This document shows positions 1-10,919 of a stretch of DNA of 10,919 bases, piece after piece. Positions within the stretch are counted from its first letter, which is position 1; each line of letters begins with the position of its first letter. Source of the DNA: Phycisphaerae bacterium (GTDB taxonomy: Bacteria > Planctomycetota > Phycisphaerae > SM23-33 > FEN-1343); contig JAWLCG010000153.1 in assembly GCA_041687295.1 (NCBI GenBank), positions 1-10,919 on the forward strand, written 5' to 3'. Made by a program: the position numbers and the translations under genes. The notes beneath the pieces are model-generated. The model made no database searches, was not told the DNA's origin, and worked only from the letters and a program-made list of their open reading frames with translations.

Positions 1-70
1 CGGCCATGGCACCCGGAAGACAAGCCAAAGCGGCGACGTTGTCGCCGCACTCCATATTGCCCAGGCAGCC

Positions 71-105
71 TCGGGCGCCGTCGACGGCGGGCCGTGCCCG
101 CCCTA
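71..105. repeat. REP-like palindromic element, single copy, same family as the 4522-4712 cluster
   Basis: tcgggcgccgtcgacggcgggccgtgcccgccctac. It contains the 10-bp perfect palindrome ccgtcgacgg and the hairpin ggcgggc-cgt-gcccgcc (7-bp arms), and is near-identical to ggcgccatcggcggcgggccgtgcccgccctacgg at 4677-4712. It overlaps the stop codon of the MFS gene. Confidence 0.55.
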
Positions 106-1434
106 CTCGGCCGGCTCGTCGTCCTCGGTGGCGGCGGCGACGGGCTCGACGGGGGTCTGGACGACCAGGGGGAAGCCCCGCTCGGGCCTCGCCTCGCTCA
201 GCATGCCGAAGCGGCGGAGGCGCGGAAACAGCGCCGCCCACAGCCCCACCACGCCGATGCAGCCGATACCGCCGCTGACCACCGAGACTACCGGCCCGAA
301 CAGCCTGGCCACCAGGCCCGACTCGAAGCCGCCCAGCTCGTTGCTCGAACCGATGAAGATGCTGTTGACGGCCGAGACGCGCCCACGCATCTCGTCGGGG
401 GTGACCATCTGCACCAGCGTGTGGCGGATGACGACGCTGACGTTGTCGAACACGCCGGTGAGGAACAGCATCGCCAGCGACAGCCAGAAGCTCGTGCTGA
501 TGCCGAAGACGATGGTAACCGCCCCGAAGCCGGCCACCGACAGCAGGAGCGTTCGGCCCGCCTTGCGCATCGGCGGCAGGTGCGCCAGCAGCAGGCCCAT
601 GCACATGGCCCCGGCGGCCGGCGCGGCCCGCAGGAAGCCGAAGCCCGTCTCGTCAACGCCCAGGATGTCGCGGGCATAGATCGGCAGCAGGTAGACCGCC
701 CCGCCCAGAAGCACGGCGAACATGTCCAATGAGATCGGCCCGAGCACCAGCTTGTGGTGCCAGACGAAGCGGATGCCCTCGGCGAGTTGTGCGAGCATTG
801 GCCCCCGCGGCGAAGGCGCCTGGGGCCTGAGCTTTAGCGTCGTCAGCAGGCCGATCATGGCCATGGAGCTGCACGCGGCGATGAGGTAGGCCCCCGGCAC
901 GCTCCAGGCCACGACGAACCCGCCCAGGGCCGGGCCCACCAGGCCGGACATCTGCATCAGGCTGGTCCGCCACTTGACGGAGTTCTCGAAGACCTCGGGT
1001 GGCACCAGCAGCGGCAGCATCGCCGTGCGGGCCGGGCCGCCCAGCCGCAGCACCGAGGAGTCCATCAGCAGCACCAGGTACATCAGCCAGATCGGCCCCT
1101 GACCGACGGCCAGGCCCGCCAGCGCCAGCGACGTCAGCGTCGCGCCGGCCATGCTGAGCATCAGCAGCTTGCGGCGGTTGAAGCGATCGGCCAGGTAGCC
1201 GGCCGGCAGCGTCAGCAGGAGCATCGGCGCCGCCTGCACCAGGCCGACCATCCCCAGGGCCAGCGGATCGTCGGTTCGGCTGTAGATCTGCCAGCCGATG
1301 GCCACGCTCTGGCCGGCCGTGCCAATGTGCACGAACAGCGAGCCGAACAGCCAGCGACGGAACGCCGCATGCCGGAAGGCCTCGTACGGGCTGGAGTGGC
1401 CGGTCCGGGGCGGACCGGATTCAGGTGTGCTCAT
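103..1434 (-). CDS. MFS-family transporter (12-TM-type major facilitator, EntS/MFS_1-like)
   Basis: 443-aa ORF, hydrophobic throughout with many predicted TM stretches. N-terminus FRHAAFRRWLFGSLFVHIGTAGQSV and the loop motif GYLADRFNRRKLLM match MFS motif A (G-x-L-a-D-r-x-G-r-k). Weak SD (agagag) upstream on the minus strand. The stop codon cta (103-105 on +) lies inside a REP-like repeat. Confidence 0.85.
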   Translation of the reverse strand: MSTPESGPPRTGHSSPYEAFRHAAFRRWLFGSLFVHIGTAGQSVAIGWQIYSRTDDPLALGMVGLVQAAPMLLLTLPAGYLADRFNRRKLLMLSMAGATLTSLALAGLAVGQGPIWLMYLVLLMDSSVLRLGGPARTAMLPLLVPPEVFENSVKWRTSLMQMSGLVGPALGGFVVAWSVPGAYLIAACSSMAMIGLLTTLKLRPQAPSPRGPMLAQLAEGIRFVWHHKLVLGPISLDMFAVLLGGAVYLLPIYARDILGVDETGFGFLRAAPAAGAMCMGLLLAHLPPMRKAGRTLLLSVAGFGAVTIVFGISTSFWLSLAMLFLTGVFDNVSVVIRHTLVQMVTPDEMRGRVSAVNSIFIGSSNELGGFESGLVARLFGPVVSVVSGGIGCIGVVGLWAALFPRLRRFGMLSEARPERGFPLVVQTPVEPVAAATEDDEPAE

Positions 1435-1664
1435 GGGGTCTCTCTGCCGGCTCCGCCGGCGGCGGCGCCCGCGGGGGCGGGCGGGTGTGACGAATTCGAA
1501 CGCAGCATCCTACCGCAGCCGGCCCAGCGGGTCAATTCGATCCGTCCTCTGCCGGCCAGCCCCGCCGGGCCTAGAATCCCATAGGCCCCGAACGCCGGAC
1601 CGGGGGACAGCGGATGCCTCCGCCCGCCCCGCCCGCGCCGCCGTCGGGCCAGGAGTGTGAAGTC

Positions 1665-2072
1665 ATGCGCAGCATCCGGTACATCCTCAGCGGCAAGCCC
1701 AGCCGCCTCGACGACTGCATCGACTACGCCGACCATCACCCCGTGCAGCGGATCGAGCTGACGCTGCAGACGCCCGAGCAGGTCACCGAGATCTGGACGG
1801 CCCGTTGGCTGCAGGGGCGGTTCACGTGGTTCTTCGAGGGCGGCGCGGTCGCCTGCGAGCGCGCCTTCGGCGGCTGTTTCCAGCACGAACCGTCCGCCCG
1901 GCAGCTCACCAGCGTCCATAACGCCAACGCCCGGCTCCTCCGCGAGCTCGACGCCATCCGCGACCGCCTCGGCGACGTCCCCATCGATGGCGCCGACCGC
2001 CGCTTCGACGAGTCAGCGGTCTACCAGCCCCAGACCGCCCAATTCGACGCCTGGACCCCCGACCAGTTGTAG
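1665..2072 (+). CDS. hypothetical protein (about 135 aa; alternative upstream start at 1614)
   Basis: ORF 1614-2072 in the track. The internal ATG at 1665 is preceded by aggagtg (SD-like) at proper spacing, and the upstream part (MPPPAPPAPPSGQECEV) is low-complexity. Codon usage matches neighbours (GC3-rich). No family recognised by eye. Confidence 0.5.
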   Translation: MRSIRYILSGKPSRLDDCIDYADHHPVQRIELTLQTPEQVTEIWTARWLQGRFTWFFEGGAVACERAFGGCFQHEPSARQLTSVHNANARLLRELDAIRDRLGDVPIDGADRRFDESAVYQPQTAQFDAWTPDQL

Positions 2073-2154
2073 CCCGTAGGGCACGTAGGTTCGTGAGCGC
2101 CAGCGAGCGGTTCTGCGTGCCGCGGCGACGCCGAGCGGTTCTGCAGCCTCGGCC

Positions 2155-2185
2155 TTGACATCGGCGGCACCCTCGCTGATATATC
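2155..2185 (+). promoter_or_regulatory. sigma70-type promoter: -35 TTGACA (2155-2160), 17-bp spacer, -10 GATATA/TATATC (2178-2185), overlapped by the perfect 12-bp palindrome CTGATATATCAG (2176-2187)
   Basis: Read directly: ttgaca tcggcggcaccctcgct gatata. The -10 sits in a conspicuously AT-rich patch of an otherwise ~70% GC region, about 75 nt upstream of the sialidase ATG (2263). Two 13-bp direct repeats cgagcggttctgc (2104-2116 and 2132-2144) lie just upstream. Confidence 0.45.
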
Positions 2186-2262
2186 AGTCCATTCCTTGCC
2201 GGTCCGCCTCCCCTCGGCTCGTTCGCCGGCGGGGGCGTGCGGGCAAACGAGAGGACTTCGCC

Positions 2263-3405
2263 ATGACCGCCGACGGTGCCTTGTTCACGACGAGCGACAT
2301 CTTCCAGGCCGGCCAGGACGGCTACCACGTCTGCCGCGTGCCCGGGCTGCTGGTGACGGCGGCCGGGACGGTGCTGGCCACCACCGAGGCCCGCCGGGGC
2401 CACGGCGGTGACTGGGACGCCAACGACATCCTGCTCCGCCGCAGCCCCGACGGCGGGCAGACGTGGGAGCCGGCGTGGCCTGTGGCGGCCGCCGCGGACT
2501 TCGGCCCCGGGCCGATGGACAACTTCGTGATGATCCGCGACGAGTCCGACGGGGCCGTCCATGCCCTGGTCTGCCACAACTATGCCCGCGTGTTCTACCT
2601 CCGCAGCGACGACGACGGGCAGACCTTCAGCGCCCCGCGCGACGTGACGGCCGCCTTCGAGGCCTTTCGCGCCGACTACCCCTGGCGGGTCGTCGCCGTC
2701 GGGCCCGGCCACGCCATCCAGGTCCGCGCCACGGGCCGACTGGTGGTGCCCGTCTGGATGAGCGACGGCACGGGCACCGAGTTCGGCCACGGCAAGCTGG
2801 GGCACCGGCCCAGCGTCGTCAGCACCGTCTACAGCGACGATCACGGCCAGAGCTGGCACCGCGGCGACCTCGTCGTCACTACCGATGGCCGGGTGATCAA
2901 CCCCAGCGAGACCCTCGCCGTCGAGCTGGCCGACGGAAGCGTCCTGCTGAACATCCGTAGCGAGTCGCCCGAGCACCGCCGGCTGATCTCCGTCAGCCCC
3001 GACGGCGCGACCGGCTGGTCCCAGGCCCGCTTCGACGACGCCCTGCTCGAGCCGGTCTGCATGGGCGGCCTGCTGCGCCTGAGCTGGCCCGAGCAGGGCC
3101 CGGGGCGCGTCATCTTCACCAACCCCGACACCCTCGAGCAGACCATGGTCCGCCCCGGCGTGGTCAACTGCGACCGCAAGAACCTCACAGTGCAGCTGAG
3201 CTACGACGATTGCCGCACCTGGCCGGTCAAGAAGGTCATCGAGCCGGGCCCCAGCGGCTACTCCGACCTCGGCGTGCTGCCCGATGGCACGATCCTGTGC
3301 ATCTACGAGTGCGGGCAGGTCGGCGGAAGGATGTTCCAGGACCGCGCCATCCGCCTGGCCCGCTTCAACCTCCAGTGGGTCACCGACGGGCGCGACGCCC
3401 TGTAG
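2263..3405 (+). CDS. exo-alpha-sialidase / BNR-repeat glycoside hydrolase (GH33-like)
   Basis: Four Asp-box (S-x-D-x-G-x-T-W) motifs: SPDGGQTW (nt 2443-2466), RSDDDGQTF, YSDDHGQSW and SPDGATGW. An N-terminal RIP/RVP motif (CRVPGL) is typical of sialidases. Start chosen at the ATG at 2263, preceded by gagagga SD. The track ORF starts at 2155 but that extension overlaps the promoter. No obvious signal peptide. Confidence 0.85.
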   Translation: MTADGALFTTSDIFQAGQDGYHVCRVPGLLVTAAGTVLATTEARRGHGGDWDANDILLRRSPDGGQTWEPAWPVAAAADFGPGPMDNFVMIRDESDGAVHALVCHNYARVFYLRSDDDGQTFSAPRDVTAAFEAFRADYPWRVVAVGPGHAIQVRATGRLVVPVWMSDGTGTEFGHGKLGHRPSVVSTVYSDDHGQSWHRGDLVVTTDGRVINPSETLAVELADGSVLLNIRSESPEHRRLISVSPDGATGWSQARFDDALLEPVCMGGLLRLSWPEQGPGRVIFTNPDTLEQTMVRPGVVNCDRKNLTVQLSYDDCRTWPVKKVIEPGPSGYSDLGVLPDGTILCIYECGQVGGRMFQDRAIRLARFNLQWVTDGRDAL

Positions 3406-3426
3406 AACCTCACCCGAAGGAACGCC

Positions 3427-4527
3427 ATGAACACGCTGGAACGTTTCCGGGCCGCCTTCGCCTTCGGGAAGCTCGATCGCCTGCCGATCCACACCTTCGG
3501 CGGATGGGACGAGACCTACGCCCGCTGGCGCACCGAGGGCCTGCCGGCCGACTGGGGACAGAAGAACTTCTTCGGCGAGGACCCCACGGCCTCCACCGGC
3601 GTGCACCTGGGGACCAACGGCTTCAGCCCGTTCTTCCCGCGATGGACGCCCGAGTTGCTCCAGGAGGACGACACCTACACCGTCATCCGCGACGAGCACG
3701 GGCGGGTCCTCCGCCGGCGCAAGGACGTCGTCAGCGCCTCCATCGCCGAGTACCTCGAGTTCCCCGTCCGCGGCCGGGCCGACTGGCAGCGCGTGAAGCA
3801 GCGGATGGACCCGGCCATTGAGGTCCGCTACGAGAAGCTCGCCGCCTCGGCCGACTGGTATGCCCAGCATGGCGAGGACCGCCCGGTGATCCAGGCCCTC
3901 TCCGGCACGTTCCGCGTGCTGTGGCACCTCATGGGCGACGAGGGGATGTACCTGGCCCTGTACGACGAGCCGGAGATGATCCACGACATCATGCGCACCT
4001 GGCTGCACATGAACGTCACGGCCATCGACCGCATCGCCGCCCGCATGCCCATCCACGTGCTGAACATCATGGAGGACATGTCGGGTAACACGGGCATGCT
4101 GATCTCGCCGGCGATGTTCCGCGAATTCATGATGCCCTACTACCAGCAGCTCATCCAGCACGTGCGCAGCCATACCGATGTGTTCGGCGTCTGGGTCGAC
4201 AGCGACGGCGACGTATCGGCCCTGATCCCGCTGCTGCTGGAGTGCGGCGTGCAGGGAATGTTCCCGTTCGAGGTGCAGGCGCACATGGACGTGGTGGCCC
4301 TGCGCCGCCAGTACGGCCAGCAGCTCGTGATCCGCGGCGGCATTGACAAGCGGGTCCTGCCCCGGGGCCGGGACGCCATCGACCGAGAGCTCGACCGCGT
4401 GCTGCCGATCTTCGCCCAGACCGGCGGCTACTTCATCTGCCTCGACCACCAGGCCCCGCCCGACGTGCCGCTGGAGAACTACCTCTACTTCCTCGAAAAG
4501 GCCCGCACCTATACACCTTGTCCGTAG
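3427..4527 (+). CDS. uroporphyrinogen decarboxylase (URO-D)-like family protein, function unknown
   Basis: 366 aa. The N-terminus LERFRAAFAFGKLDRLPIH resembles the HemE N-terminus (ERFxxALxGExxDRxPVW). The C-terminus GGYFICLDHQAPPDVPLENYLYFLE resembles the URO-D-family GGYILNLGHGIxPxTPxEN block. Good SD (gaagga) 7 nt upstream and a 21-bp gap after the sialidase suggest co-transcription. The stop TAG (4525-4527) lies inside the first REP-like repeat. Confidence 0.7.
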   Translation: MNTLERFRAAFAFGKLDRLPIHTFGGWDETYARWRTEGLPADWGQKNFFGEDPTASTGVHLGTNGFSPFFPRWTPELLQEDDTYTVIRDEHGRVLRRRKDVVSASIAEYLEFPVRGRADWQRVKQRMDPAIEVRYEKLAASADWYAQHGEDRPVIQALSGTFRVLWHLMGDEGMYLALYDEPEMIHDIMRTWLHMNVTAIDRIAARMPIHVLNIMEDMSGNTGMLISPAMFREFMMPYYQQLIQHVRSHTDVFGVWVDSDGDVSALIPLLLECGVQGMFPFEVQAHMDVVALRRQYGQQLVIRGGIDKRVLPRGRDAIDRELDRVLPIFAQTGGYFICLDHQAPPDVPLENYLYFLEKARTYTPCP

Positions 4528-4566
4528 GGCGGGCACGGCCCGCCGCGCTGGCGCCCGGCGCCACTC
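4522..4566. repeat. REP-like element, inverted-orientation copy
   Basis: ccgtagggcgggcacggcccgccgc is the exact reverse complement of gcggcgggccgtgcccgccctacgg found in the downstream direct copies. It is followed by gctggcgcccggcgcc, the counterpart of ggcgccgggcgccatcg. Confidence 0.65.
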
Positions 4567-4578
4567 AGCTCATTCAGG

Positions 4579-4641
4579 GACGCCTGTCCCGGGGGCTCAT
4601 GCGCCCGGCGCCATCGGCGGCGGGCCATGCCCGCCCTACGG
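4579..4641. repeat. REP-like 63-bp unit, direct copy 1
   Basis: gacgcctgtcccgggggctcatgcgcccggcgccatcggcggcgggccatgcccgccctacgg. It contains the palindromes gcgccNggcgc and ggcgggc-cat-gcccgcc. Confidence 0.75.
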
Positions 4642-4649
4642 ACTTTGCG

Positions 4650-4712
4650 GACGCCTGTCCCGGGAGCTCATGCGCCGGGCGCCATCGGCGGCGGGCCGTG
4701 CCCGCCCTACGG
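4650..4712. repeat. REP-like 63-bp unit, direct copy 2
   Basis: gacgcctgtcccgggagctcatgcgccgggcgccatcggcggcgggccgtgcccgccctacgg. It sits 71 bp after copy 1 and differs from it at 3 positions, all in loop or centre positions of the palindromes. Confidence 0.75.
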
Positions 4713-4965
4713 GCTGCTCCCAATGCCTCGGCCCGGTGGGGGTTCTGACGTGTCGCAGAAACTCTGATTTGGGACCTCCAATAGTTGTTGCAAATCTCCG
4801 ATGGCGGTGTAGGCTTAGGGATGAAGACTCCGAAGCTGGGCCGGCCCCCGCGGTGGGACGCGGGAACGGGCCGAAGCCCGCCAAGCGATCAGAGGGTCGC
4901 ACGTCGCCCCTCGTCGCCGGTGATCCCGGTGGCTGCGGCCCCGGGAGCCTTGAAAGGAGCATGCC

Positions 4966-5664
4966 ATGGGGATTCTTGCCCGTCTTCATCGTGTCACGGT
5001 CGGGGGGATCGAGGCCTTCCTCAAGCGGTTCGAGGACCCCGAGGTCATCCTGCCCCAGCTCATTCGCGAGATGGAAGCGCAGCTGCGCTCGGCGACCGAG
5101 GCCGAGGCCAGCGTCGCCGCCAGCGTCAAGCGGGCCGAGCGGGACCTCGAGCAGGCCCGCCAGCGCGTCACCACGCTGGGCCGAGGGGCCGAGCTGGCCC
5201 TGTCCGAGGGCCAGGAACAGACCGCCCGCGACGCCCTCAGCGCCCAAGTCGATGCCGAGCGGGCCGCCGAGCGGGCCCAGCAGAACCTCGACCGCACCCG
5301 CCAGACGCTGGAGCGTGCCACCGACGCGCGGATGCAGGTCCACCAGCAGCTGCAGGACCTGCGGAGCCGCAAGGACGAGATCCTCGCCCGCGCCCGCGTG
5401 GCCAAGGCCCAGAAGAAGGTCAGCCAGAGCGTCGACGGCGCCGTCGGCTCGACCGACAGCATTCTCGACGCGGTCGCCCGCCTCGAGCACGGCGTGGCCG
5501 AGACCGAAAGCGAGCTGGAGATCCGCAGCGAGATCAACGGCGAGCCGACCGCCTCACTGGAGCAACGGCTGATCGAGCTGGAGCGCAACAGCGAGGTCGA
5601 GCGTCGCTTGGCCGCCCTGCGGAGCCCCGGCCCGGCCGAGCCGACCGAGCCGACGCAGGCCTGA
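4966..5664 (+). CDS. pspA: PspA/IM30 family protein (phage-shock protein A / Vipp1-like, ESCRT-III superfamily)
   Basis: 232 aa. The N-terminus MGILARLHRVTVGGIEAFLKRFEDPEVILPQLIREMEAQL aligns closely with E. coli PspA [40 protein letters not shown]. The rest is a charged E/R/A/Q-rich helical hairpin/coiled coil. Strong SD aaggag sits 6 nt upstream of the ATG. Confidence 0.9.
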   Translation: MGILARLHRVTVGGIEAFLKRFEDPEVILPQLIREMEAQLRSATEAEASVAASVKRAERDLEQARQRVTTLGRGAELALSEGQEQTARDALSAQVDAERAAERAQQNLDRTRQTLERATDARMQVHQQLQDLRSRKDEILARARVAKAQKKVSQSVDGAVGSTDSILDAVARLEHGVAETESELEIRSEINGEPTASLEQRLIELERNSEVERRLAALRSPGPAEPTEPTQA

Positions 5665-5677
5665 CCCGAGTCACCCT

Positions 5678-5706
5678 CGGCGGCGGGATCGGGAGACCCG
5701 CCGCTG
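5678..5706 (+). promoter_or_regulatory. GC-rich hairpin between the two pspA paralogs (stem cggcggg / cccgccg, 9-nt loop), without a U-tract
   Basis: Read directly: the 7-bp perfect arms cggcggg (5681-5687) and cccgccg (5697-5703) extend to about 10 bp with a G-U pair. It sits 14 nt after the pspA1 stop, inside an unusually long (120-nt) spacer in an otherwise tightly coupled operon. The perfect palindrome gtgcgcac lies about 35 nt further on. Confidence 0.3.
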
Positions 5707-5784
5707 CAGCGCCCGGTGAGCCCGCGAGGACCCGTTGTGTGCGCACGGGCCCCGCGGCCGCCGGCGGAACCAAGGGGATCCGCC

Positions 5785-6480
5785 ATGAGCATCCTCGAAC
5801 GCATCCAACGCATCGCCCGGGCGAACCTCAACTGGCTGCTGGACCGGGCCGACCCGCCCGAGCAGCAGTTGGCCGAGCACATCGCCGAGCTGCAGTCCGC
5901 CCTGGCCGAGGGCCGACAGTGCGCCGCCAACTACGGCGCGACCGTCAAGCGGATGACCCGCCAGGCCGACGAGCTCGGCCAGCGCATCGCCGCCCTGCAG
6001 GCCCGGGCCGAGGCCGCCCTGGCCGCCGGCGACGAGCCCGCCGCCCGGGCCGCCCTGGGCGAGAAGCTCCAGTCATCCGAACGGCTGGCCGGACTGGAGC
6101 CGGGCCTGGCCCAGGGCCGGGCGAACTACGAACAGCTCAAGGACAACCTCGCTGCGCTGGGCGACCAGCTCTCGGCCGCCCGGTTGCGGCTGGAGGAGCT
6201 GCGGGCGCGTCAGCGGGCCGCCGAGGCCCACCGCGCGTTCGCCCAGCGGCTCGACGGGGCAGGCGCACCGGGCGCCGACGCGGACGCCTTCGACCGGCTG
6301 GAGGACGGCGTCCTGCAGGCCGAGGCCGAGGTCGAGGCCCGCGAGGAGATCCGCGCCGCCTCGATGGGCGAGGCCGACCTGGACGCGCGGAGCCGCCAGT
6401 GGCAGGTCGAGGCCGAGCTGGCGGCCCTCAAGCAGCGGATCGATCGGCCCAAGGAGTCCGACCATGGAACTGCTCCGTGA
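5785..6480 (+). CDS. PspA/IM30 family protein, second divergent paralog
   Basis: 231 aa from the internal ATG at 5785 (SD aagggga upstream); the track ORF starts at 5716. The N-terminus MSILERIQRIARANLNWLLDRADPPEQQLAEHIAELQSAL has the same architecture as PspA helix-0/helix-1, and the remainder is an Ala/Arg/Glu-rich coiled coil. It ends with a 17-nt overlap (ATGGAACTGCTCCGTGA) into the next gene. Confidence 0.8.
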   Translation: MSILERIQRIARANLNWLLDRADPPEQQLAEHIAELQSALAEGRQCAANYGATVKRMTRQADELGQRIAALQARAEAALAAGDEPAARAALGEKLQSSERLAGLEPGLAQGRANYEQLKDNLAALGDQLSAARLRLEELRARQRAAEAHRAFAQRLDGAGAPGADADAFDRLEDGVLQAEAEVEAREEIRAASMGEADLDARSRQWQVEAELAALKQRIDRPKESDHGTAP

Positions 6481-7102
6481 GGCCCTGTCGCCCTGGAACG
6501 TCCTGTTCACCGCCCTTCTGGCGGCGCTGGCGGGCTACTGGGTGCTGGTGATTCTGGGCGCCCTGAACGTCGAGGCCATCGACGTCGACGCCGGCGACGC
6601 CGATGCGGACCTGGGCGCCGACGGCGAGGCGGCCGGCGGCCCGTTGCGGGCGCTGCTGGCCTGGCTGTTCATCGGCGAGGTGCCGGTGATGGTGCTGGCG
6701 AGCATCTGGGTGCTGAGCCTCTGGACGCTGGGCGTGCTGGGCCAGCACTACTTCAACCCCACCCGGGCGATCGTGCCGGGCCTGGGCGTGCTGGCCGGCA
6801 GCCTGTTCGTCAGCCTGCTGGTGGTGCGTGTGGCGGCCCGGCCCCTGCGGCGGGCGTACGCCCTGCTGAACAAGGACTACAACAACCCCGGCCAGGTGGT
6901 CGGGCGAATCTGCGTGGTGACGACCTCGACCGTCTCCGAGCGCCTGGGCCAGGCCCAGGTGACGACGGCGGGGGCGCCGATCCTGCTGAACGTGGTGGCC
7001 GAGGCCGGCCAGGTCCTCCGCAAGGGGGACGAGGCGGTCGTCGTGACCTGGGATGAAGGCAAGGGCGCCTACATCATCGCGCCCGTGGATTTGGAGGCAT
7101 AA
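6464..7102 (+). CDS. NfeD/YqiJ-like membrane protein (TM N-terminal half plus C-terminal OB-fold), the usual partner of SPFH/flotillin proteins
   Basis: 212 aa. Hydrophobic segments VLFTALLAALAGYWVLVILGAL, VMVLASIWVLSLWTLGVL and GLGVLAGSLFVSLLVV. The C-terminal GQVVGRICVVTTSTVSERLGQAQVTTAGAPILLNVVAEAGQVLRKGDEAVVVTWDEGKGAYIIAPV matches the NfeD short-form OB-fold pattern (G-x-G-x-v ... G-x-V-x-V ... y-x-V). SD aaggag 7 nt upstream. The stop lies 3 nt before the flotillin start. Confidence 0.75.
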   Translation: MELLREALSPWNVLFTALLAALAGYWVLVILGALNVEAIDVDAGDADADLGADGEAAGGPLRALLAWLFIGEVPVMVLASIWVLSLWTLGVLGQHYFNPTRAIVPGLGVLAGSLFVSLLVVRVAARPLRRAYALLNKDYNNPGQVVGRICVVTTSTVSERLGQAQVTTAGAPILLNVVAEAGQVLRKGDEAVVVTWDEGKGAYIIAPVDLEA

Positions 7103-7105
7103 GCC

Positions 7106-9121
7106 ATGCTTGCTGCATTTGCCGAACAGACCTTCGCCGTCGTGGTGGCCCTGGCCGTCCTGTTCGGGATCGGCATCCTCGCGATGGTCGTCAAGTGGTA
7201 CCACAAGGTCTCGCAGGGCCAGGCCCTCATCCGCAACGGCGCCGGCGGCACGCGGGTGAGCTTCTCGGGCATGTTCGTCGTGCCGATCCTGCACAAGGCC
7301 GAGTACATGGACATCTCGGTCAAGCGCGTCGAGATCGACCGCGGCGGCGCCCAGGGGCTCATCTGCAAAGACAACCTGCGGGCCGACATCAAGGTCGCCT
7401 TCTTCGTCCGCGTCAACAACACCGTCGAGGACGTGATGAAGGTCGCCCAGGCCCTGGGCTGCGTGCGGGCCAGCAGCGAGTCGGCCCTGTACGAGCTGTT
7501 CGACGCCAAGTTCAGCGAAGCCCTCAAGACCATCGGCAAGCGGTTCGACTTCGCCGAACTCTACACCAGCCGGGTGGCGTTCAAGGAGGAGATCCTCGAG
7601 GTCATCGGCACCGACCTCAACGGCTACGTGCTCGAAGACGCCGCCATCGACTACCTCGAGCAGACCGACAGGAAGCTGCTCAACCCCGACAACATCCTCG
7701 ACGCCGAGGGCATCAAGAAGATCACCGTCCTGACGGCCGAGCAGTTCGAGTTCGCCAACAGCCGGGAACGCGAACGCGACAAGACCATCACTCGCCAGAA
7801 CGTCGAGGCCAAGGAGACGATCCTCGAGCTCAACCGCCAGCTCGCCGAGGCCGAGGCCAAGCAGCATCGCGAGATCGCCACCATCCAGGCCCGCGAGGAG
7901 GCCGAGGCCAAGCGCGTCCAGGCCGTCGAGCGCGAGAAGGCCGAGAAGGCCCGCATCGCCGCTGACGAGGAGATCGCCGTCGCCGAGGAGAACCGCCTGC
8001 GGCAGATCGTGGTCGCCGCCAAGAACAAGGAGCGCACCGAGGCCGTCGAGAACGAACGCGTCAGCCGAGACCGCGACCTCGAGGCCACCGAGCGCGAGCG
8101 GCAGGTCCGCCTGGCCGAGGTGACCCGCGACAAGGCCGTCGAGACCGAACGCAAGGACCTGCAGACGGTCATCCGCGAGCGGGTGATGGTCGAGAAGAGC
8201 GTCGTGCAGGAGGAGGAGCGGATCAAGGACACCCGCGACTTCGCCGGCGCCGACCGCCAGAAGCGCGTCGCCATCACGCAGGCCGAGCAGGACGCCGAGC
8301 GGGCACTGGTCAAGGACATCAAGGCCGCCGAGGCCTCCAAGCGGGCCGCCGAGCTCTACGCCGACCAGCAGCTCATCGAGGCCGAGGCCAACGAGAAGGC
8401 CGCCCAGCGCAACGCCGCCGCCAAGGTCACCCTCGCCGAGGCCAACGTCCAGGAGCAGGCCGTTCCCGGCCTGGCCGAGACGACCGTCTTGAAGGCCAAG
8501 GCCGACGCCACCGAGAAGCAGGGCGCCGCCGAGGCCAAGGTCGCCGAGATGCGCTTCCACGCCGACGCCGAGGGCATCCGCGAGAAGGCCGACGCCATGA
8601 AGCTCTTCGACGGCGTGGGCCGAGAGCACGAAGAGTTCAAGCTCCGCCTCGACAAGGACAAGCAGATCGAGCTGACCGCCCTGGACATCCAGCAGCAGAT
8701 CGCCCGCGAGCAGGCCACGCTCATCGCCGCCGCCCTCAAGAGCGCCCGCATCGACATCGTCGGCGGGGAGAACGGCTTCTTCGAGCGGCTGGTGCAGTCG
8801 ATCACCGCCGGCAAGGCCGTCGACCGCATGATCACCAGCTCCGAGGTGCTCAGCGACCTGCGGCACACCTTCCTCGACGGCGACGGCGAGCAGACGGCCC
8901 AGCGGATCCGCGAGTTCGTCGCCCAGTTCGGCGTCAGCAGCGAGGACGTGCGGAACCTGACGGTCTCGGCCCTGATGATGAAGCTCATCGGCCTGGCCGA
9001 CGAGACCGGCAAGGGCCCGCTGCAGCAGATGCTCGGCCAGCTGGAGAAGATGGGCCTGGGCAACCGGATGGCCCACGAGCTGATCGGCCCCGGGGCCGGG
9101 CGCATGACCTCGCGGTCGTAG
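7106..9121 (+). CDS. flotillin-like SPFH/band-7 domain protein (YqiK/FloT-like) with an extended EA-rich coiled coil
   Basis: 671 aa. N-terminal TM helix FAVVVALAVLFGIGILAMVVKW, then an SPFH domain (ALIRNGAGGTRVSFSGMFVVPILHKAEYMDISVKRVEI...ICKDNLRADIKVAFFVRV) and a long flotillin-type Glu/Ala repeat region (AEAEAKQHREIATIQAREEAEAKRVQAVEREKAEKARIAADEE...). SD ggagg upstream. Confidence 0.9.
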   Translation: MLAAFAEQTFAVVVALAVLFGIGILAMVVKWYHKVSQGQALIRNGAGGTRVSFSGMFVVPILHKAEYMDISVKRVEIDRGGAQGLICKDNLRADIKVAFFVRVNNTVEDVMKVAQALGCVRASSESALYELFDAKFSEALKTIGKRFDFAELYTSRVAFKEEILEVIGTDLNGYVLEDAAIDYLEQTDRKLLNPDNILDAEGIKKITVLTAEQFEFANSRERERDKTITRQNVEAKETILELNRQLAEAEAKQHREIATIQAREEAEAKRVQAVEREKAEKARIAADEEIAVAEENRLRQIVVAAKNKERTEAVENERVSRDRDLEATERERQVRLAEVTRDKAVETERKDLQTVIRERVMVEKSVVQEEERIKDTRDFAGADRQKRVAITQAEQDAERALVKDIKAAEASKRAAELYADQQLIEAEANEKAAQRNAAAKVTLAEANVQEQAVPGLAETTVLKAKADATEKQGAAEAKVAEMRFHADAEGIREKADAMKLFDGVGREHEEFKLRLDKDKQIELTALDIQQQIAREQATLIAAALKSARIDIVGGENGFFERLVQSITAGKAVDRMITSSEVLSDLRHTFLDGDGEQTAQRIREFVAQFGVSSEDVRNLTVSALMMKLIGLADETGKGPLQQMLGQLEKMGLGNRMAHELIGPGAGRMTSRS

Positions 9122-9153
9122 ACACCGATGTACCAGTGCGGAGGGCAGTGTTG

Positions 9154-10919
9154 ATGGCGGACACGCCGGTCCAGGCCGAGTCGGCCCCTGCCGACGCCCC
9201 GCTCGAGGGCGGGACCTACGAGATCCTGCGCAACCGCCTGGCCAGCCACGGCCAGGAGCTGCGCGAACGGCTCGAGCAGCTCAACGTCGCCCGCAAGGAC
9301 GTCTTCGGCTCGCTCGACAGCCAGCTCGTCTCGACCGAGCGGATCAGCACCGAGAACAACTGCGTGCCGCGCGACATCGCGCCGGTCGGCGAGACGATCC
9401 TGTTCGGCTACAACGTCTTCATCGGCCTGCGGGCGACGACCACGCCGGCCGACGTCTTCTCGGCCTACCGCTGGCAGGACGCCGCGCTGAGCCCCTGCCC
9501 GCTCGAGCTGATCCACGACGAGCGCTTCGAGGCCGACTTCGCCAACCTCTACCGCTACTACCGCCACACCACCTTCGCCCGCTTCGCGCGGCGGGGGCCA
9601 CACCTGTTCATGGTCTTCCGCGTCGGACAGGGCGCCGACGACATCAAGACCTTCAAGTGGCTAATCCGCGACGGCACGCTGAGCTACCTGGACAACCGCA
9701 GCGACCACGAGCTGGTCTACCCGCCCCAGCACGGCTTCGAGTGGCAGCGGGCGACGCACGACATGCACCGCCCGGGCCCCTGCCCGCACATCTCAATCGA
9801 GGACCGCGTCTTCGTCGAGACCCTCGGCGGCGACCTGACGATCAAGGTCGAGGACAACACCGCCAGCGGCCAGGGCATCTTCTCCGAGCCCGTCGAGAAC
9901 CCCGACCAGACCCTCGACGACGCCGAGGTCCTCTACGCCCTCGTCGGCGACCTGGTGCTGCTGCGCATCCGGCCCTACCAGGAGAAGGCGTTCCGCCACA
10001 TCGTCTACAACGCCAAGATCCGCCAGGCCGTCCGCATCGACTCGATCCAGGAGGCGTGCGTCCTGCTGCCCGAGGGCCACGGGCTGATCTTCCCCCGCGG
10101 CTACTACCTCCAGTCGGGCCAGCACAAGCAGTTCGACCAGGCCATCGAGGGCATGACCTACGAGGCCTGCGTCAGCTCGCCCAACGGCGAGGACTCGCTC
10201 TACTGCTTCCACAACCGCCTGACGGGCGAGTACGTGCTGCTGGCGTACAACCTGATCGCCCAGCGCGTGGCCGTGCCGATCCTGTGCCACGGCTTTTCGC
10301 TCTTCGAGGACGGCACGCTGCTGTACTTCCGCGCGTCGGACGAGCCGCAGAAGCACCACGCCATCCAGGTGTGGCGCACGCCCTTCACCGGGCCCGACTT
10401 CCTGCGGCCCGCCCGGCAGGACAGCTACCTCTACAAGATCGGCAACCGCGACATCGTCCGCTGCATGGCCGAGTGCACCGAGCTGCTCAACCTGCTGGGC
10501 CGCGACGAGTCGTACGCCAACCTCTACCTCGACCTCACCCGCAAGGCCCAGGCCCTGCGCGACGCGTGGTTCTGGCTGGGCCGCGAGGAGACCTTCAACC
10601 TCGCCGAGCCGCTCGACCAGATCCGCCAGGCCGCCGCCAGCGCGGTCGAGGAGTACGAGAAGGTCACCCGCGCCCGCCAGGCCTCGGCCGAGCAGATTGG
10701 CCGCGTCGCCGGGCAGGTGCAGGAGCTGGTCGGCTCGATCGACTACTACCACCTCGACGACATCGGCGCGTTCGTGAAGCTGCTGGCGGGCATCCGCGCG
10801 GGCCGGGGGGCCGTCGTGGGCCTGCGCGATCTGCGCTACGCCGACCCCGCCCGCATCGACCCGCTGGAGGCCCAGCTCGCCGAGCATGGCCAGAAGCTCT
10901 CGCAGCTGTGCGTGGAGTT
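9154..10919 (+). CDS. large conserved-looking hypothetical protein, 3'-truncated by the window (at least 588 aa), co-operonic with flotillin
   Basis: Not in the ORF track because no stop is reached. Translated by eye from the ATG at 9154 (SD ggaggg 7 nt upstream, 32 nt after the flotillin stop): MADTPVQAESAPADAPLEGGTYEILRNRLASHGQELRERLEQLNVARKDVFGSLDSQLVSTERIS...HGQKLSQLCVE. The frame stays open for 1766 nt with GC3-rich codon usage identical to its neighbours. No Walker A, TM segment or other known motif is recognisable in the visible part. Confidence 0.65.
   Translation, partial: MADTPVQAESAPADAPLEGGTYEILRNRLASHGQELRERLEQLNVARKDVFGSLDSQLVSTERISTENNCVPRDIAPVGETILFGYNVFIGLRATTTPADVFSAYRWQDAALSPCPLELIHDERFEADFANLYRYYRHTTFARFARRGPHLFMVFRVGQGADDIKTFKWLIRDGTLSYLDNRSDHELVYPPQHGFEWQRATHDMHRPGPCPHISIEDRVFVETLGGDLTIKVEDNTASGQGIFSEPVENPDQTLDDAEVLYALVGDLVLLRIRPYQEKAFRHIVYNAKIRQAVRIDSIQEACVLLPEGHGLIFPRGYYLQSGQHKQFDQAIEGMTYEACVSSPNGEDSLYCFHNRLTGEYVLLAYNLIAQRVAVPILCHGFSLFEDGTLLYFRASDEPQKHHAIQVWRTPFTGPDFLRPARQDSYLYKIGNRDIVRCMAECTELLNLLGRDESYANLYLDLTRKAQALRDAWFWLGREETFNLAEPLDQIRQAAASAVEEYEKVTRARQASAEQIGRVAGQVQELVGSIDYYHLDDIGAFVKLLAGIRAGRGAVVGLRDLRYADPARIDPLEAQLAEHGQKLSQLCVE

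Follow-up and report, generated by a model that had tools for sequence, protein, structure and literature searches.

The window analysed here is a 10,919-nucleotide stretch of DNA from a Phycisphaerae bacterium (assembly GCA_041687295.1, contig JAWLCG010000153.1, positions 1 to 10,919 of the forward strand). Five closely spaced plus-strand genes, the first of which starts at 4966, extend to its 3′ end, and the last of them (9154→10919), which is cut by the window end, is the target of this report. As judged from its sequence, the target belongs to the DUF3686 family and is a giant, cytoplasmic AAA+ ATPase, the AAA+ part being extrapolated from homologues; the 588 codons in the window encode the N-terminal portion of a protein of ~1,650–1,900 residues organized as DUF3686-DUF7902-AAA+. 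The four genes upstream encode two PspA/IM30 paralogues (paralogue 1, 4966–5664, 232 residues, Pfam PspA_IM30 E = 1.5e-33; paralogue 2, 5716–6480, at most 254 residues, E = 4.2e-31), a YqiJ/NfeD-like membrane protein (6464–7102, 212 residues, Pfam YqiJ_N E = 1.9e-7) and a divergent flotillin/SPFH-like protein (7106–9121, 671 residues), which weakly matches NCBIfam FloT (E = 2.9e-4, 20 bits). The Pfam match in paralogue 2 begins at residue 25, and its true start may be later. The YqiJ/NfeD-like protein features three hydrophobic segments (residues 11–39, 60–94 and 101–128), and the flotillin-like protein a single one (residues 1–33). The five genes are spaced by 51, −17, 3 and 32 nucleotides, and no terminator-like site is found on the plus strand between 4400 and 9300. 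Consequently, they are consistent with one operon, the first gene of which would be PspA paralogue 1.

The target frame is open from the ATG at 9154 to the window end. This ATG lies 32 nucleotides after the stop codon of the flotillin-like gene (TAG, 9119–9121) and is preceded, at a distance of 8 nucleotides, by the Shine-Dalgarno-like sequence GGAGGG (9140–9145, plus strand), in agreement with an earlier note on this DNA, which had described an open frame of 588 or more residues with a good ribosome-binding site. Alternative in-frame starts (GTG 9136, GTG 9148 and TTG 9151) would affect at most 6 residues. The GC content of the window is 70%, a composition at which long open frames occur by chance on either strand. 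For instance, two spurious minus-strand open reading frames (ORFs) of 876 (1906–4536) and 882 residues (6428–9076, GC at the first codon position 0.96) lie antisense to real plus-strand genes; both have their GC maximum at codon position 1, mirroring the real gene on the other strand. ORF length is therefore no proof of a gene in this window. The codon-position profile of the target (GC at positions 1, 2 and 3 of 0.685, 0.408 and 0.981) is like that of the upstream PspA, NfeD and flotillin genes (third-position GC, GC3, of 0.92 and 0.91 in the two PspA genes), and GC3 remains at 0.97–1.00 across all 300-nucleotide windows of the frame. The target ORF is a real gene, and the lack of coding signal that the earlier note had named as grounds for discarding it is not observed (GC3 0.98 in frame).

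The earlier note had assigned the target to an unrecognised family. Residues 35–473 (9256–10572, plus strand) align to the full Pfam profile of DUF3686 (PF12458; positions 1–448 of 448) with 616.4 bits and E = 3.2e-185, the gathering cut-off being 25 bits; the family is thus catalogued, as DUF3686 plus DUF7902, and carries the NCBI product name ‘DNA repair ATPase’. The note was right that the 588 residues contain neither a nucleotide-binding motif nor a transmembrane helix, as they lack a Walker A motif and any segment of transmembrane-level hydrophobicity, and wrong that they contain no known domain. The peptide it quoted (FKWLIRDG...PGPCPH) maps to residues 167–212, inside DUF3686.

A search of 5.8 billion proteins returned 449 homologues at E ≤ 1e-5, the best of which is 61% identical to the target; many were automatically named ‘DNA repair ATPase’ by NCBI. 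Searched exhaustively, the representatives of 50%-identity clusters gave 840 clusters with E ≤ 1e-3 and 273 with E ≤ 1e-30. Complete representatives range from 1,590 to 2,036 residues, and DUF3686 is N-terminal in all of them; 68 complete ORFs, of 1,624–1,887 residues, were found among 80 genomic loci fetched. The last residues of the target, LSQLCVE, align to the start of the conserved DUF7902 block. The ORF is cut mid-gene, and by comparison with the far longer complete homologues the window holds only the N-terminal third of the protein. An exact 39-mer from the window end had no match in the metagenome contig collection. Early closure of the frame and missing linkage to flotillin or PspA genes, which together would have told against the proposal of the earlier note, are not seen in homologues, which extend for another ~1,100–1,300 residues and nearly always have a flotillin gene linked to them.

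A Pfam scan of four full-length homologues revealed a common layout, in which DUF3686 (~35–475) is followed by DUF7902 (~595–680), a further conserved region, an AAA+ module (~1,230–1,590) and a variable tail. The AAA+ module is present in 68 of the 68 complete homologues of at least 1,600 residues, located roughly 360–530 residues from the C-terminus. The guess that the target is a remodelling partner with a C-terminal ATPase domain is largely right. The ~800 residues between the N-terminal domain and the AAA+ module are conserved, and a profile of the middle region (590–1225) has no meaningful match in the PDB. Tails downstream of the AAA+ module consist of tetratricopeptide repeats (TPR), ankyrin repeats or an apolipoprotein-like coiled coil (P0161, P0194, P0168 and P0211), which suggests lineage-specific binding of adaptors or clients. 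TPR and ankyrin repeats were also considered as alternative N-termini; this was rejected, as the repeats are C-terminal tails. Likewise, an apparent fusion of a flotillin C-terminus to DUF3686 (P0364, in L161 at 1844–7310) was rejected as a likely frameshift artefact, the operon on that contig being broken into fragment genes with 4-nucleotide overlaps, a pattern typical of frameshift errors. The N-terminal extension of another homologue (P0246) shows no similarity to flotillin.

The 588 residues were modelled with AlphaFold2 from a 51-sequence alignment, and secondary structure was assigned with DSSP. The model has a mean predicted local distance difference test score (pLDDT) of 89.5 and a predicted template modelling score of 0.82. 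It consists of a long N-terminal helix (residues 19–51, 9208–9306), a beta-propeller-like domain of ~29 strands (residues 57–408, 9322–10377) and a region of long helices (residues 425–587, 10426–10914) that leads into DUF7902, the start of which falls just outside the window, all encoded on the plus strand. In the model, then, the N-terminus is a divergent beta-propeller followed by a helical region. The most conserved stretch of the N-terminal part corresponds to one blade (residues ~211–250, PHISIEDRVFVETxGGDLTIKxEDNT), directly after the His-rich block singled out in the earlier note.

Foldseek comparisons of this model with the PDB returned mostly propeller proteins as top matches, with a probability of ~1 and low template modelling scores (TM-scores, 0.13–0.36). 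Among them are the clathrin heavy-chain terminal domain plus linker, IFT-A and Elp1, and the combination of a propeller with long helices behind it is reminiscent of clathrin, IFT-A and coatomer. The target could itself be a structural, membrane-associated scaffold or coat, the AAA+ module of which controls its own assembly beside flotillin microdomains. The ~800 conserved residues that match no solved domain and the frequency of the family in the Planctomycetota-Verrucomicrobiota group and in Bacteroidota would fit such a role. The low TM-scores are, however, those of generic propellers, and the helical part resembles bundles or a coiled coil, no alpha-solenoid being apparent; the likeness serves as a lead only, and we regard a coat function as improbable.

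Conservation among the homologues is highest in the AAA+ module, with a mean column identity of 76%. Invariant motifs include SPPGYGKT (Walker A), DDIQH (Walker B, with two aspartates) and MAGNPYTESG (sensor 1), and invariant arginines occur in NRAD and GSYRNMN. Because the catalytic motifs are invariant, the module is probably active in the homologues. A sequence profile of the module aligns with p97, VAT and Rix7 over only ~40 residues around Walker A (E~1e-5); PF00004 scores 27–33 bits, with two of the four homologues matched only over the first ~73 of 131 profile positions; AAA_5 scores 22–27 bits against a cut-off of 22, a marginal match; RuvB_N and RuvB match weakly at the P-loop region. 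A model of the module has a pLDDT of 74, below 50 in the Walker A loop, and features a beta-hairpin preceding sensor 1. Foldseek placed RuvB, ClpX, ClpB, MCM, Cdc48, Vps4 and NorQ/CbbQ at similar E-values, the best target TM-scores (TMt, 0.55–0.63) being for the MoxR-type proteins NorQ/CbbQ. The modelled fold is AAA+; Foldseek does not separate the RuvB, ClpX, MoxR and Cdc48 clades.

The weak RuvB matches, together with the Pfam description (‘ATPase involved in DNA repair’) and the NCBI product name, are what speaks for a DNA repair ATPase. Pfam and NCBIfam scans revealed no DNA-binding, nuclease or helicase-specific domain, and the RuvB matches are as weak as those to Cdc48, ClpX and MoxR. 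Moreover, the conserved neighbours are all membrane-scaffold genes, and our literature search found no paper naming DUF3686 or PF12458, nor any combining ‘DNA repair ATPase’ with flotillin. A role in DNA repair is thus extremely improbable.

Gene linkage was measured from both sides. The ATPase-anchored set contains one genome per species, and in 66 loci at least 3 kb is available upstream; the flotillin-anchored set was drawn from independent metagenome contigs, and in 58 loci at least 1.5 kb is available downstream. Both samples are the 80 best matches and lean towards relatives of the window proteins (47–68% identity). A flotillin homologue lies within 3 kb upstream, on the same strand, in 58 of the 66 ATPase-anchored loci; in three more it lies behind an inserted cassette (ATP-binding cassette (ABC) ATPase/DUF5687), for a total of 61. 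No flotillin was found in the remaining five loci (L018, L019, L032, L061 and L073), where ~7.5–10 kb upstream is available. Conversely, a DUF3686 gene is directly downstream on the same strand in 56 of the 58 flotillin-anchored loci, and two flotillin genes (L112 and L138) lack a downstream ATPase. The pairing holds in 92–97% of the loci in both directions. The loci belong to Planctomycetota, Verrucomicrobiota, Bacteroidota, Bacillota, Desulfobacterota, Riflebacteria and Alphaproteobacteria, and flotillin and ATPase genes constitute a near-obligate pair across many bacterial phyla. A YqiJ/NfeD-like gene was detected by tblastn upstream of flotillin in 52 of the 66 ATPase-anchored loci. Clustering of all neighbouring ORFs identified flotillin and the YqiJ/NfeD-like protein as the only recurrent partners, and no conserved gene downstream of the ATPase.

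Insertions between the two genes were seen in three Bacteroidota loci. An ABC-transporter ATPase and a DUF5687 protein lie between flotillin and the ATPase in L042 (7035–9899) and L050 (7123–9899), and unclassified repeated ORFs (cluster c14) do so in L039 (4810–9718).

PspA genes were found upstream in 16 of the 80 loci anchored on the ATPase, and in 2 of the 65 anchored on flotillin; PspA is a lineage-specific addition to the flotillin-ATPase core. The earlier note had presented the target as a partner of a PspA/flotillin module, to be checked by structure modelling, Foldseek and co-occurrence with PspA, NfeD and flotillin genes. The modelling yielded a propeller and, in homologues, the AAA+ fold, and linkage to flotillin and YqiJ is conserved; linkage to PspA is a minority trait. 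The three closest relatives (Phycisphaerae-type, 60–62% identity) carry two PspA genes upstream, as in the window, and a third directly after the ATPase (L001 15326–16012, L002 15412–16245 and L003 11850–12608). The Phycisphaerae-type operon would accordingly read PspA-PspA-YqiJ-flotillin-ATPase-PspA; the window ends before the position of the third PspA. Bacteroidota loci are organized as CesT_Tir_1-PspA-YqiJ-flotillin-ATPase, with a divergently oriented helix-turn-helix (HTH) gene (cHTH) at the CesT_Tir_1 end. No CesT/Tir gene is present in the window, where the 438 nucleotides upstream of the first PspA gene (4528–4965) have no coding signal. This non-coding gap is presumably the regulatory region of the operon; no sigma-70-like promoter match and no Rfam family were found in it, and Rfam had no match anywhere in the window.

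The genes on the other side of the gap, as identified from the frame plot and from Pfam/NCBIfam matches, encode a major facilitator superfamily transporter (103–1434, minus strand), a BNR-repeat protein (2155–3405, plus strand) and a URO-D-like protein (3427–4527, plus strand). A 152-residue protein encoded at 1614–2072 on the plus strand has a good coding signal and no match in Pfam, NCBIfam or PADLOC.

Large multidomain ATPases beside membrane proteins are common in defence systems, and PspA takes its name from ‘phage shock’. An anti-phage or abortive-infection system, in which the large ATPase senses infection and the membrane proteins act as effectors, was therefore weighed. PADLOC gave no meaningful match for the five operon proteins, and none at all for the window target; the best scores were a 15-bit match of mad8 to the P-loop of a full-length homologue and coiled-coil noise on PspA. 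In addition, the gene pair is conserved across phyla at 47–68% identity, the neighbours vary among loci, and no defence gene recurs beside the core. A defence function is very improbable.

The flotillin-like partner is itself unusual. It has no Pfam match even at E ≤ 1, and Band_7 was matched by 3 of 32 close homologues (best 6e-11). A PDB sequence search with the protein returned nothing useful, and a profile of the family found only QmcA (E = 0.005). Judged by these comparisons, the 7106–9121 protein is a divergent SPFH subfamily member that would escape standard annotation.

The operon type has been described before. Ravi et al. (mSystems, 2024; PMC11237479) reported operons, with an example context from Dokdonia donghaensis, that encode a CesT/Tir-PspA dyad, a YqiJ/YuaF protein with three transmembrane segments, a Band-7, coiled-coil and flotillin protein, and a beta-propeller, coiled-coil and AAA+ ATPase; abbreviated operons without PspA were more widespread. 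The order of propeller, helical or coiled-coil region and AAA+ module is the same in the target family, the AAA+ module of the target being taken from homologues, and corresponds in Pfam terms to DUF3686 + DUF7902 + AAA. The ATPase gene directly follows the gene for the transmembrane-Band7-coiled-coil-flotillin protein and the YqiJ-like gene, with PspA upstream, and the five-gene context is reproduced by the Bacteroidota relatives. In contrast, the window features two tandem PspA genes and no CesT/Tir. On grounds of architecture and context, rather than direct comparison with the Dokdonia sequence, we infer that the target belongs to the family of Ravi et al. It is not the novel component that the earlier note had envisaged, as the same operon was already listed in 2024. 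It adds a member to a family already catalogued and described computationally, and its operon is a variant with duplicated PspA genes.

SPFH proteins assemble into membrane cages with AAA+ machines as partners, as in FtsH-HflK/C, and ESCRT-III polymers require an AAA+ disassemblase in archaea and eukaryotes. Against this background, we give about an even chance to the reading that the target carries out ATP-driven remodelling of flotillin/PspA membrane assemblies. The propeller and the helical region would dock the ATPase to the flotillin assembly at the membrane or, where PspA occurs, to its polymers, and the AAA+ module, presumably as an oligomeric ring, would use ATP to disassemble, recycle or reorganise the scaffolds during envelope stress. 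Such a role would be functionally analogous to that of Vps4 on ESCRT-III, without homology to Vps4, and would follow a logic related to that of FtsH inside the HflK/C cage.

A stronger version is that the family would be the missing bacterial counterpart of Vps4, a dedicated ATP-driven machine that disassembles and recycles flotillin cages and, in lineages like the present one, where two or three PspA genes flank the pair, ESCRT-III-like PspA polymers; it would be built on a non-classical AAA+ module, with recruitment by a propeller instead of an MIT domain. As with Vps4, an AAA+ ATPase is encoded beside genes of the ESCRT-III superfamily (PspA), and a role in recycling membrane polymers is plausible. 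According to a 2025 review (PMC7619361), bacteria appear to lack a Vps4-like ATPase. The two families differ in several respects. No MIT match was found in the target or in the four full-length homologues, the N-terminus being a propeller instead; similarity of the AAA module to classical AAA proteins is confined to the surroundings of Walker A, a beta-hairpin is predicted ahead of sensor 1, and Walker B is of the DD type. Moreover, the proteins are four times larger than Vps4, and their constant partner is flotillin, not PspA. The Vps4-counterpart idea is unlikely in this strong form.

The same synteny also fits a reversal of roles, in which the flotillin cage and YqiJ/NfeD corral and regulate a MoxR-like chaperone ATPase. 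Its substrates would then be not the scaffold but damaged or unassembled membrane proteins or complexes, to be extracted or reshaped. In FtsH-HflK/C, an SPFH cage surrounds an AAA+ protease. With this system and with SPFH-NfeD pairs such as QmcA-YbbJ, the operon of the target shares a set consisting of an SPFH-family scaffold, an NfeD/YqiJ-type membrane protein and an AAA+ machine, which are encoded together and presumably act together. The TPR, ankyrin and coiled-coil tails resemble client- or adaptor-binding modules, Ravi et al. proposed a chaperone-like role for these operons in assembling membrane-linked complexes (PMC11237479), and the flotillin of Staphylococcus aureus is reported to stabilise unfolded proteins (PMC11222466). 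The AAA module superposes best on NorQ/CbbQ, shares with MoxR chaperones (NorQ, CbbQ and RavA) the marginal AAA_5 match and a GNP at sensor 1, and some sources label fragments of the family ‘MoxR-like ATPase’. On the other hand, the target lacks a transmembrane segment in its first 588 residues and, unlike FtsH, has a propeller N-terminus, and no protease domain was detected in DUF3686-family homologues. Nor is a VWA gene, the usual partner in MoxR systems, recurrent among the conserved neighbours; the ATPase module is preceded by ~1,250 residues, and the tails are different. Foldseek E-values are alike for MoxR, RuvB and ClpX, and the AAA model is of moderate quality. The reversed arrangement, the main rival reading, is possible, though on the unlikely side.

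Several points weigh against ATP-driven remodelling as well. The ATPase part lies outside the window, and its presence in the source organism is extrapolated from homologues. The module has no obvious aromatic pore loop, and the sequence matches to Cdc48/VAT are limited to the Walker A region; substrate threading is therefore not supported. Because PspA is absent from most loci, it cannot be the general substrate. The propeller carries many invariant His, Asp and Glu residues; these could belong to a metal or catalytic site, not to a surface for docking. The sole apparent flotillin-DUF3686 fusion, which if genuine would have pointed directly to an interaction, is the artefact mentioned above. 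The literature search found no experiment on any member of the family, and a 2026 paper on Pseudomonas aeruginosa SPFH proteins mentions no relevant ATPase.

The lead itself is not new, having come from the comparative genomics of Ravi et al. (PMC11237479). The window adds the Phycisphaerae-type variant with duplicated PspA, a quantified flotillin-ATPase linkage and evidence against the label ‘DNA repair ATPase’, which hundreds of database entries bear without foundation. As it is encoded beside one flotillin subfamily in nearly all loci and in many phyla, the ATPase is a concrete, testable candidate for the disassembly or regulation of flotillin and PspA/Vipp1 assemblies in bacteria.

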